This document shows positions 14,199 through 22,802 of a stretch of 64,000 nucleotides of DNA, in pieces (within the stretch, counting starts at the first letter, position 1; each line of letters starts with the position of its first letter). Both the position numbers and the translations under genes were made by a program. This DNA is from a virus (Duplodnaviria; Caudoviricetes), in IMG/VR virus record IMGVR_UViG_3300014059_000008, positions 27,416 through 91,415 of that record; one strand, 5' to 3'. The notes below the pieces were generated by a model, which worked only from the letters and a program-made list of their open reading frames with translations, ran no database searches and was not told the DNA's origin.

Positions 14199-14407
14199 CG
14201 CGGCGGCCTATTTTTCTTGGCCCACGCTGCGGTCAGCTTAAAAAGAGCCGTTTCTGCTTTCGATTGTCGATCGAGTTCTTCTTCAGTCGGGTCATCCACA
14301 GTGAGATCGTCAAGCTCCACAAGCAGGTCCAAAACCTTGTGTAGTGCGCGCCCCTGATCACAACTGGCCGACAACTCGACGATCGCTTGGACTTCTTCGT
14401 CATCCAT
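14195..14407 (-). CDS. small acidic protein
   Basis: GGCAGGAGG RBS; first CDS after the RNA cluster. Confidence 0.65.
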   Translation of the reverse strand: MDDEEVQAIVELSASCDQGRALHKVLDLLVELDDLTVDDPTEEELDRQSKAETALFKLTAAWAKKNRPPR

Positions 14408-14432
14408 CTACTTGTTCCTCCTGCCAGAACCA

Positions 14433-14507
14433 AGGTGCGCACCGGACTCGAACCGGTAATTCCCATCAACTAGTGATCGGCCTTTTACCAATTAAAGGTA
14501 GCGCACC
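14433..14507 (-). tRNA. tRNA-like RNA with non-canonical anticodon loop (central TAG, nominal Leu)
   Basis: GGTGCGC-TA-CCTT(TAATTGGTAA)AAGG-C-CGATC(ACTAGTT)GATGG-GAATT-ACCGG(TTCGAGT)CCGGT-GCGCACC-T; no CCA encoded. Confidence 0.8.
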
Positions 14508-14514
14508 AAAAGAG

Positions 14515-14598
14515 TGCATCGATCGGGTGATACATGAGGCAGAACGCTCTAAGGCCCAGCCGTAGATCTCCTGACGGCAACACAGCCCGACCGATGCA
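14515..14598 (-). ncRNA. structured RNA module: 13-bp closing stem with internal CAGGA-loop hairpin
   Basis: TGCATCGGTCGGG pairs with CCCGATCGATGCA (the G-U works only on the minus strand); inner GCCGT(CAGGAGATCT)ACGGC. Confidence 0.6.
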
Positions 14599-14599
14599 G

Positions 14600-14700
14600 T
14601 GGACCACCCAGGCTTTGAACCTGGATTATAGCAGCCGTTGGTGAGTCGCTTTCGCTGTGACTCTGCGCCGCTCTAGTTTTACCGGTTAAACTAGTGGTCT
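14600..14700 (-). ncRNA. tRNA-like RNA with anticodon arm replaced by a ~50-nt GAAA-capped insert
   Basis: AGACCAC-TA-GTTT(AACCGGTA)AAAC-[insert]-CCAGG(TTCAAAG)CCTGG-GTGGTCC-A. Confidence 0.75.
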
Positions 14701-14705
14701 GATTT

Positions 14706-14850
14706 GCCGGGATTGCCCACCCGGCCTGGGTTGAGAGGTCTTCCAATTCTCTGTCTGACCGCAACTCCGTCAGTTGAGGCCCTATCCGGCTTAGGGTTGC
14801 CTGCCTGTTTTTGGTACGAGTCCCACGTACTAGCGATGCGCAATATCGCT
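14706..14850 (-). ncRNA. array of six short hairpins
   Basis: AGCGAT/ATCGCT, GTACG/CGTAC, CCCTA/TAGGG, CTGAC/GTCAG, GAGA/TCTC, GCCGGG/CCCGGC. Confidence 0.55.
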
Positions 14851-14902
14851 GCCAGACTGTTACGATTTTAGGGTTCCAAAGCTGGTCATAACGTCATCCC
14901 TG

Positions 14903-14963
14903 CGACCCGTCCAGGGATCGAACCTGGGACCAAGAGCTTGCTCTACCGCTGAGCTAACAGGTC
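14903..14963 (-). ncRNA. tRNA-like RNA lacking the anticodon arm
   Basis: GACCTGT-TA-GCTC(AGCGGTA)GAGC-AAGCTCTTGGTC-CCAGG(TTCGATC)CCTGG-ACGGGTC-G; only 12 nt between the D and T stems. Confidence 0.8.
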
Positions 14964-15080
14964 AAACTACGCTCCGATGGTATCGATCATATCGAATGCT
15001 CGGAGCAACACATACCGCAAGTTTAGCCCAGACGGGCGCGCTCGATACCTTCACGCTAGACGACCGACCTCACTTGGGCA

Positions 15081-15109
15081 TAAGTACACAGGTTGCCTAG
15101 TAGTGTCAA
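15081..15109 (-). promoter_or_regulatory. promoter upstream of the ncRNA cluster
   Basis: TTGACA-17nt-TACTTA. Confidence 0.6.
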
Positions 15110-15114
15110 TATCA

Positions 15115-15561
15115 TTATTTCGGCGACCCGTAAGCCAACCATCCAGCATCGACGCCAAGAGCCGCTGCGATGCGCTCCACTACTGCCCGCGCTGGATCGG
15201 TGCGGCCTGATTCATAGCTTCCGACTACCGTGGGGCTTATCTTGGCAGCAGCGGCCAGCTTGCGGATGCTTATCTTGGCCATGGTCCGCGTGCGCAGCAG
15301 GCGATCTGGGAACGTATCTGCGGCTTTTGGTGCTTGCTTTTGCAGCGGCTGTACACGCGGCTCCAGCTCGTAGCCTAGCGCTGTCAGGATCTTTGACAGG
15401 GTGCCGATCTGCATTGTGGTTTTGCCGCCGAGCACCTGGGTGATGTTCGCAGGCGCGCAGCCCATGCGGCGTGCCAGCTCGCGGCGGCTGACTTTGTGCC
15501 GCGTCATCAGCTCGCAGATAATCTCTGTGATGGCTACTTGGGTGCGGTCAGTCATCGGCAC
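15115..15561 (-). CDS. XRE-family regulator with two HTH domains
   Basis: SRRELARRMGCAPANITQVLGG and SIRKLAAAAKISPTVVGSYESGRTDP. Confidence 0.85.
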   Translation of the reverse strand: MPMTDRTQVAITEIICELMTRHKVSRRELARRMGCAPANITQVLGGKTTMQIGTLSKILTALGYELEPRVQPLQKQAPKAADTFPDRLLRTRTMAKISIRKLAAAAKISPTVVGSYESGRTDPARAVVERIAAALGVDAGWLAYGSPK

Positions 15562-22187: not shown

Positions 22188-22802
22188 TTACCTCTGCCTG
22201 CTGAGTAGATCCAGCGCTGAGCCGTACTGTGGGCTTCCAGTCGAGAGTGTGCCCGCGCAGTAGATGGACACACCGTCGTCAAACTGGTTCTTGCCGCAGA
22301 TGCAGTGGTGCCGGGTCGCAATCTTGACCATCACCCCTTGCGCCTCGACGTGGGCAATCAGCGCATCAGCTACCGAGCGCGCGATGCTTTCCGGCGTAGT
22401 CAGCCGTCGAGCAAACATCTTGACCAGCCGGTTCATGTTTCCAACGGGTACGGTCCGCCGGTCGCCAGTCCCCAGGTGCTTGGGGATGTACGCAATCTTG
22501 ACCGCCACGCTCATCGGCTGCAGGTGCTCGGCGCAAGTGCTAGCAGATCCCAGGCTTCTGACGGTGACAATGTTCGACGTTGGCAGCGACACTCGGTATG
22601 GGCTCGTGCATTCCGTGGTATGCGCCAAAACATCGGCGGCATTTTGGAAGTAACCTTCGGTAGCCCGTAAATGCGATTGTGCTGCGTTCTGAGCCGTGTC
22701 TAAAACGAGCCGTTCCCGCTCCTCTGGTGGGATTCCAAGCTCGTCTAGCAGGCTTTCTAGGATTGTTCTAATGCGGTTCTCGTCTCTCATGTGTGCCTCC
22801 AA
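22188..22802 (-). CDS. folE: GTP cyclohydrolase I-like protein (divergent)
   Basis: STCAEHLQP, IAYIP, RLVKMFARRL, GVMVKIATRHHC. Confidence 0.8.
   Translation of the reverse strand: MEAHMRDENRIRTILESLLDELGIPPEERERLVLDTAQNAAQSHLRATEGYFQNAADVLAHTTECTSPYRVSLPTSNIVTVRSLGSASTCAEHLQPMSVAVKIAYIPKHLGTGDRRTVPVGNMNRLVKMFARRLTTPESIARSVADALIAHVEAQGVMVKIATRHHCICGKNQFDDGVSIYCAGTLSTGSPQYGSALDLLSRQR

Follow-up and report, generated by a model that had tools for sequence, protein, structure and literature searches.

A gene-free gap of ∼0.7 kb (positions 14408-15114) in the genome of a wastewater phage carries, on its minus strand, one copy of a mosaic non-coding RNA cassette that is found in several phages. 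The DNA analyzed (hereafter, the window) is a stretch of 64,000 nt that spans positions 27416-91415 of the 91.4-kb IMG/VR phage record IMGVR_UViG_3300014059_000008. Every copy of the cassette starts with a promoter-like motif, a leader, and a module shaped like a transfer RNA (tRNA), after which further tRNA-shaped and hairpin modules alternate. As a phage non-coding locus, the cassette is real, conserved, and non-random. Two of the modules present in relatives, tRNA-X and tRNA-Y, are non-decoding, and non-decoding tRNA shapes are therefore, by all appearances, a maintained feature of the cassette family. The reading we favor, tentatively and at somewhat less than an even chance, is that the cassette transcript is cut at the tRNA shapes by host tRNA-maturation enzymes and that these shapes are processing or stabilizing handles.

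The record encodes a terminase, a helicase, and helix-turn-helix (HTH) regulators. Upstream, the gap is bordered by a double-HTH gene (15115-15561, minus strand), and downstream by a small open reading frame (ORF) starting at 14407. Apparent ORFs across the gap are not kept between relatives and indels there are not multiples of three; a protein-coding reading was rejected because its frames are unconserved. An earlier, sequence-only reading of this DNA had placed three tRNA-shaped elements in the gap, and all three are present where it put them, based on Rfam for tRNA1, on folding for tRNA2, and on ARAGORN for tRNA3. On both strands of the whole genome, T-arm motifs with a 5-bp stem occur four times, and three of the four are within one 530-nt part of the gap, so the clustering of tRNA shapes is not due to chance. 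The remaining T-arm-like motif (CAGCG TTCAAAG CGCTG, at ∼48758 of the window, minus strand) is inside a protein gene and is probably a chance occurrence. All three elements have a 7-bp acceptor stem, a D arm with G18G19, and a T arm whose loop is of the TTCRA type, except for A1.C72 in tRNA2 and for A14 and G10 in tRNA3. None of the three has a 5-bp anticodon stem with a 7-nt loop that includes U33 and a purine at position 37.

Relatives of the cassette were found through homologues of the flanking helicase and HTH proteins (loci L004, L193/L208/L210/L212, L200/L201, and L195/L197). One more, L117, was found in a metagenome pattern scan and belongs to a Mu-like phage that otherwise does not resemble the window. 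Parts of the cassette also occur in public sequencing runs from sludge, soil, fresh water, and one wastewater metatranscriptome; in comparisons with contigs of these runs, gaps in coverage do not equate to absence of a module. Between relatives, modules are swapped, lost, or gained, and the unit of L117 is minimal, consisting of the promoter-like motif, leader, tRNA-X, a hairpin, and a terminator. Searches of other collections were negative. GenBank phages queried with the region, tRNA2, tRNA3, and the leader showed no similarity beyond one 23-nt chance match. Five DNA patterns and the helicase protein yielded no cassette relative in IMG/VR, two patterns yielded none in species genomes, and one spacer pattern yielded none in JGI metagenomes. 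The 63 loci in IMG/VR with distant helicase relatives have neither the leader nor the tRNAs.

The evidence for maintenance of non-decoding shapes is clearest for tRNA-X, which is present in L208, L200, L197, and L117. It scores 54.1-56.6 bits against the Rfam tRNA model and has an Asp-type body with an Asp-type D arm. At the position of the anticodon arm there is a 12-nt mini-arm (4 bp closed by GACG) in L208, L200, and L197, in the versions CUCG-GACG-CGAG or CUGG-GACG-CCAG, and a 16-nt arm in L117. Across the four distinct sequences, 76 of 76 pair cells are paired and both partners have changed in three pairs, including two pairs of the mini-arm. Neither the T arm nor the 3' acceptor strand varies, even between backgrounds with leaders that are ∼74% alike. 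No exact match to the 25-nt 3' half of tRNA-X was found among ∼185,000 species genomes of bacteria and archaea or in IMG/VR, indicating that it is no piece of a host tRNA. At least tRNA-X is thus apparently kept by selection in different phage backgrounds, which simple decay does not predict. A second non-decoding module, tRNA-Y, is found in L200/L201, has a 6-nt loop (GUAAAA), and scores 40.6 bits against the Rfam tRNA model in L200. The loop of tRNA-X in L117 still has GUC, and that of tRNA-Y has GUA. In L117, tRNA-X (L117:4389-4459, minus strand) has G3.U70 and A73, and the other versions have A3-U70; G3.U70 together with A73 is the pattern that alanyl-tRNA synthetase reads on minihelices.

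The window copy does not have tRNA-X, which is present in its closest relative, and its tRNA-Asn hence adjoins the leader. This element, tRNA1 (14903-14963, minus strand), is the remnant of a tRNA-Asn(GUU). It scores 44.9 bits against the Rfam tRNA model (RF00005), for which the gathering cut-off is 29 bits, and its acceptor, D, and T arms align to the model, but its anticodon arm has 4 nt versus the 15 expected. An 11-nt deletion (GGAGCCTGTTA) took the 5' half of the anticodon stem and the loop. At the same position, tRNA-Asn(GUU) is intact in L004, L208, and L200 (63.6, 63.4, and 58.9 bits, respectively), as well as in L193, L201, and contigs of four sequencing runs (X2, X6, X10, and X16). 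With its canonical arm, it is the only canonical tRNA among the module types, and L210 and L212 carry it as well. The contig of X2 inserts 11 nt, GGAGCCUGUUA, at 14938, and contigs of X6, X10, and X16 continue with the same letters. The deletion is therefore private to this record, as tRNA-Asn is intact in all other copies compared. The acceptor stem of tRNA-Asn shows a compensatory change (G6-C67 versus A6-U67). Sequence comparison thus identifies tRNA1 as an ordinary tRNA-Asn with a recent private deletion and not as an evolved mimic. The armless tRNA had been put forward as a mimic, and that proposal does not survive: relatives hold an intact tRNA-Asn there, a finding that the proposal itself had named beforehand as counting against it.

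In L004, a degenerate 68-nt tRNA-like piece (L004:6393-6460) is located between the leader and tRNA-Asn, at the position that tRNA-X has in other relatives; ARAGORN calls it as Trp(CCA) at relaxed settings only.

The second element of the window, tRNA2 (14599-14700, minus strand), folds as a cloverleaf with a z-score of -4.2, and none of 200 shuffled sequences folds as well. In place of an anticodon arm is a 43-nt arm of three helices (6, 5, and 2 bp), with a 3x7 internal loop between the first two, a 3-nt bulge between the last two, and a GAAA loop as its cap. Bases typical of tRNAs are present elsewhere, with A14, G18G19, and A21 in the D loop and TTCAAAG as the T loop. The arm is identical in all carriers, namely the window, L004, L208, and contigs of runs X2, X6, and X10. 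It is a well-formed GNRA-capped helix, unchanged in samples of 2015 to 2025. Pair 1:72 is A-U in relatives and A.C in the window, where a private U72->C change unpairs it. ARAGORN calls tRNA2 solely with relaxed, intron-allowing settings; these are unspecific, with 41 calls across the 91-kb genome, which makes the call alone weak. There is no match to the Rfam tRNA model even at E<=10. Some X2 and X16 contigs have a dissimilar piece of 73 nt in place of tRNA2. A tRNA intron was rejected as an explanation of the arm, because the insert of ∼26-31 nt is far from the ∼200 nt or more of a self-splicing group I intron, no Rfam intron family matches, and the "intron" of ARAGORN is placed differently in the window and L004. 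A search for miscalled proteins with the spurious ORF across tRNA2 found no match.

The third element, tRNA3 (14433-14507, minus strand), is a 75-nt cloverleaf and the only call that ARAGORN makes in the genome at default settings, Leu(TAG); the same settings gave no calls in 1 Mb of other phage loci. Its 7-nt loop, ACUAGUU, has C33 and U37, its anticodon stem has a G.G mismatch, and it also has C10-G25 (no G10), no A14, and U73. As with tRNA2, it has no match to the Rfam tRNA model even at E<=10. It is found in the window, the group of L208, and X2. The versions in L208, L210, L211, L212, and X2 differ from that of the window at two positions only (U34->G and U38->C), both in the 7-nt loop. 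A reading of tRNA3 as an amber suppressor was rejected because the variant of L208 and X2 no longer has the CUA reading.

Taken over the family, the proposal that anticodon arms were altered by design in all three elements fails for tRNA1, with its private 11-nt deletion, but its core idea holds at family level, as non-decoding arms of different forms do recur on well-preserved tRNA bodies. The layout of tRNA shapes alternating with hairpins is likewise real and conserved. However, the window copy looks to be partly eroded, given the 11-nt deletion, the loss of tRNA-X, and the U72->C change in tRNA2, and three designed mimics were an overstatement for this copy.

A promoter-like motif (15081-15109, minus strand) begins 5 nt past the stop codon of the upstream HTH gene and consists of TTGACA (15104-15109), a 17-nt spacer, and TACTTA (15081-15086). 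The sequence-only reading had called it a promoter. The motif is present and recurs, as TTGAC(A/G)-N17-TA with TG before, at the same place in L193/L208, L200, L197, L004, and L117. But while its -35 element is perfect, its -10 element agrees with TATAAT at 2 of 6 positions and a consensus promoter scan calls no promoter at TTGACA-17-TACTTA. The leader RNA (14964-15080, minus strand; ∼110 nt) was delimited by sequence comparison with relatives and is conserved, with invariant blocks GCGTGAAGGTATCGAGCG-GCC and TCCGAGCA-TCG...ATCGATAC-ATCGG. The leader of the window copy is 99% identical to that of L208, 97% to that of L200, and ∼74% to that of the unrelated Mu-like L117, and contigs of all four sequencing runs compared cover it. 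In every copy, a tRNA-shaped module comes 7-13 nt after the leader. Two alternative and incompatible folds of the leader are predicted, involving mutually exclusive pairings of its ATCGATACC segment; no covariation was found behind either fold and no Rfam family matches the leader. The word CGTGAAGGCATCGAGCGCGCC, which differs from the phage leader by one base, is a conserved coding motif of ABC-transporter ATPases of many soil bacteria; it is unrelated to the cassette and can mislead pattern searches. A metagenome pattern that also matched this motif returned ∼120 irrelevant loci (among L010-L129), and L117 was its sole true relative.

These features are consistent with a role of the tRNA shapes in maturation of the cassette RNA. 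RNase P, RNase Z, and the CCA enzyme recognize the acceptor, T arm, and elbow of a tRNA and not its anticodon. The cassette would be transcribed as one RNA. Each tRNA shape in it would be cut at its 5' end by RNase P, and its 3' end would be formed by RNase E or Z together with exonucleases and the CCA enzyme. Such cuts are predicted to set free the leader RNA, which would thereby gain a defined 3' end, as well as the hairpin RNAs, the tRNA shapes as stable RNAs, downstream mRNA, and, in relatives, tRNA-Asn. Anticodon arms of handles would be free to shrink, grow, or carry a payload. This reading is suggested because the leader is always paired with a tRNA shape, because the unit of L117 has a leader with tRNA-X, and because arms vary freely. 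The window points the same way, because even after losing tRNA-X, it still has a tRNA shape directly behind the leader.

Several observations weigh against handles. The -10 element is poor. Modules tRNA-X and tRNA-Asn are nearly back to back, 9 nt apart, which is unneeded for punctuation alone. For a pure handle, most of the D arm would be superfluous, but compensatory change has preserved the D stem of tRNA-X, which hints at a role for the whole L-shape. Both tRNA2 and tRNA3 are nearly invariant among carriers, so for these no selection is demonstrated. Hairpins followed by U-tracts inside the cassette could stop transcription ahead of tRNA3. Finally, the copy in the window has three private defects and may no longer work.

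Alternatively, the tRNA shapes could themselves be effectors, as decoys or sponges for host proteins that recognize a tRNA body (anticodon nucleases, tRNA-modifying toxins, or other tRNA-binding factors) but that could neither cut nor use them, because a tetraloop or long arm replaces the anticodon loop. We consider this unlikely, although it has points in its favor. The whole L-shape of tRNA-X is kept, including the D stem, and all of its versions have a tetraloop hairpin as their arm. When tRNA3 versions are aligned over 95 nt, both differences are within the 7-nt loop, for which the chance is ∼(7/95)^2 = 0.005. This pattern is reminiscent of phage tRNAs that evade nucleases through changes in their anticodon loops (PMC10264068). 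Defenses that cut anticodon arms of tRNAs, and phage tRNAs that counter them, are also documented (PMC11464382, PMC11555353, PMC12445682), in line with decoys. But in none of the relatives is a defense or counter-defense gene associated with the cassette, the window phage and L004 can do without tRNA-X, and decoys leave the invariant leader and conserved hairpins unexplained. It is conceivable, if doubtful, that the family deliberately keeps its tRNA bodies free of a decoding loop, with a tetraloop mini-arm on tRNA-X and a payload arm on the tRNA2 scaffold, as trans-acting stable RNAs such as uncleavable decoys, and that the leader is a new phage RNA matured by RNase P and acting in cis or trans.

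The cassette could instead be a decaying array of tRNAs (Asp, Asn, Tyr, and others) in which tRNA-Asn alone is still needed, with the other tRNA shapes being pseudogenes and the hairpins remnants of spacers. Recent damage to the window copy (the deletion in tRNA-Asn, the loss of tRNA-X, and A1.C72 in tRNA2), the degenerate tRNA-like piece of L004, and the failure of tRNA2 and tRNA3 against the Rfam tRNA model are all as expected from decay, as are the Asp-type D arm of tRNA-X, the GUC that remains in L117, and the GUA in tRNA-Y. Decay is nonetheless improbable, because tRNA-X keeps every helix in four sequences through three two-sided pair changes, with an invariant T arm and acceptor strand beside leaders that are ∼74% alike, because phages that are unrelated share conserved leader and hairpin modules, and because the GNRA-capped insert of tRNA2 was identical in samples of 2015 to 2025. 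Less probable still is that the leader is a cis-acting regulator, either a put-like antiterminator or riboswitch-like, of read-through into tRNA modules and downstream genes, with the tRNA shapes as its cargo. The leader is the most widely conserved piece and is directly behind the promoter-like motif, its ATCGATACC pairings are mutually exclusive, hairpins with U-tracts are ahead of tRNA3, and the cassette runs into protein genes. Such a regulator is at odds with the lack of covariation in both leader folds and of an Rfam family for the leader, and units of L117 and L200 end at their own terminator-like hairpins.

Non-coding RNA systems linked to tRNAs are already known, and the cassette family, with its conserved leader and its tRNA-shaped modules that do not decode, is a variant of them. 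In the tRNA cluster of phage T4, the stable species 1 and 2 RNAs (rnaC and rnaD) are co-transcribed with tRNAs and excised by host tRNA-processing enzymes. The cassette resembles it as a phage locus that combines tRNAs with extra small stable RNAs. However, T4 has mostly decoding tRNAs, whereas in the cassette tRNA-Asn alone is canonical and is broken in the window copy; for the leader and hairpin modules, we know of no counterpart in T4-type clusters. RNase P also matures the C4 RNA of phages P1 and P7 and the CI RNA of phage P4, and one end of the MALAT1 RNA arises through RNase P cleavage at a tRNA-like structure, mascRNA. These are single units and not arrays, and have no sequence homology or demonstrated structural homology to the leader.

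A closer analogy in layout is with the tRNA-miRNA-encoded RNAs (TMERs) of murine gammaherpesvirus 68, in which a non-decoding tRNA-like element is joined to hairpin RNAs and directs their processing by tRNA enzymes (PMC4337559). The likeness is one of layout only, as TMERs have no homology to the cassette, belong to a eukaryotic virus, and are RNA polymerase III units with one tRNA-like element and pre-miRNA hairpins. Bacterial Y RNAs of the YrlA type keep a D arm, T arm, and acceptor-like stem, and have a long helix at the position of the anticodon arm; some are cut by RNase P and have CCA added, as is the case for YrlA of M. smegmatis (PMC4201824). Conversely, YrlA adjoins the gene encoding Ro60 (TROVE), usually together with RtcB, ends in a long stem, and has a closed acceptor stem, unlike the open acceptor ends of the cassette shapes. 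A YrlA or other bacterial Y RNA was rejected because neither TROVE nor RtcB was found in the 91-kb record, in a search that matched control genomes, and further because there is no Rfam Y-RNA match and acceptor stems in the cassette are open-ended. Phage tRNAs with altered anticodon loops evade host anticodon nucleases (PMC10264068; PMC11464382; PMC11555353). They are similar to the cassette modules in that their loops are unlike those of the host and tRNA3 variants differ in the loop only. But the nuclease-evading tRNAs keep a 7-nt decoding loop and work in translation, whereas tRNA-X, tRNA-Y, and tRNA2 cannot decode. In the literature, we found no described phage system with this layout, which is no proof that none exists.

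In most accounts, phage tRNA genes either supplement codon usage or replace tRNAs that are cut by defenses. The locus points to a third use, in which non-decoding tRNA shapes are selected and, along with a conserved leader and hairpins, are exchanged as modules among phages that are unrelated. Should the shapes be handles, the cassette would be a counterpart, in bacterial viruses, of tRNA punctuation in mitochondria and in herpesvirus TMERs, and a natural analogue of engineered tRNA scaffolds. If they are decoys, they would represent a new kind of counter-defense. The locus also calls for caution in reading sequence alone, because the armless tRNA, which stood out most, turned out to be an ordinary tRNA-Asn with an 11-nt deletion private to this record.

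Other candidate classes were considered and rejected. The tRNA shapes are not fragments of host tRNAs that form an attP site, as they are whole cloverleaves, no integrase is beside the cassette, and the 3' half of tRNA-X is unmatched in ∼185,000 species genomes. A sponge of CsrA/Rsm proteins is not indicated, as the 677-nt cassette has 10 GGA versus 12.7 ± 3.1 in mononucleotide shuffles. The idea of a link to queuosine or 7-deazaguanine had been prompted by the Asp-, Asn-, and Tyr-like modules, with their GUN anticodons. A GTP cyclohydrolase I gene is present (window 22188-22802, minus strand; Pfam 78.9 bits), two genes upstream of the terminase gene, but the link was rejected because the record is without TGT/DpdA, QueC, and QueD. 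The ARAGORN search for transfer-messenger RNA (tmRNA) across the whole genome found none.

The spaces between the tRNA shapes are filled by modules that also differ among relatives. Next to tRNA1 is a spacer (14804-14902, minus strand), defined by sequence comparison, with two small hairpins, AGCGAU/AUCGCU and GUACG/CGUAC. It is nearly identical in L004, is replaced by other sequence in L208 and L200, and is missing from contigs of the four runs, where 14803 joins ∼14898; it is one of at least three alternative spacer modules. A hairpin block follows (14703-14803, minus strand), as determined by fold prediction and by comparison of four copies. Its flanks, CCCUA/UAGGG and GCCGGG/CCCGGC, are kept in the window, L004, L208, and L200, and the hairpin or hairpins between them vary. 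The middle hairpin is replaced yet paired, with UCGCGG/CCGCGA in L004 versus UAGCGG/CCGCUA in L200. Between tRNA2 and tRNA3, the 84-nt stem-closed RNA noticed in the sequence-only reading (14515-14598 in a module of 14508-14598, minus strand; fold z-score of -3.0) is upheld. It has a 13-bp closing stem and an inner GCCGU/ACGGC hairpin, and is followed by CUCUUUU (14508-14514). Relative to L004, pairing of the closing stem is kept through two double changes and one single change, and the element is also present in L208. In an RNA library (X16), there are contigs that span the leader, tRNA-Asn, and the 84-nt and hairpin parts of a relative's version, a weak observation as DNA may be present in such libraries and contigs do not reveal RNA ends.

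The 3' part of the cassette is where protein genes are found in relatives. Relative to the window, L208 has an additional 120-nt stem-closed element and a gene of 149 aa ahead of tRNA3. The latter is a DUF2158 gene (L208:2893-3342) that is located in the cassette between the 84-nt element and tRNA3 and is not in the window. In both arrangements, that of the window and that of the L208 type, a hairpin with a U-tract precedes tRNA3. A conserved trailer, TTGGTTCTGGCAGGAGGA, with a Shine-Dalgarno sequence (14408-14432, minus strand) follows tRNA3 and is identical in the window and L208. Downstream of it are a 70-aa ORF in the window and an Rce1-like (CPBP) gene in L208 (L208:3485-3997) that is not in the window. 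Protein genes thus appear to be swapped in and out of the cassette. At the opposite side, eight contigs with an upstream DHHA1 gene (L195, L197, and L202-L207) end ∼170-230 nt past this gene, within or at the end of tRNA-X. Seven of the eight are from one run series and they add no full copies of the cassette; their ends suggest that strain heterogeneity or repeats break assemblies at tRNA-X.

Short sequences are also shared between modules of the window. There are direct repeats at 14468-14478 and 14689-14699, with GATCACTAGTT in the arm of tRNA3 resembling GACCACTAGTT at the 5' end of tRNA2. Similarly, CGG(CT/TA)TGTGTTGC is common to the leader (15005-15017) and the 84-nt element (14577-14589).

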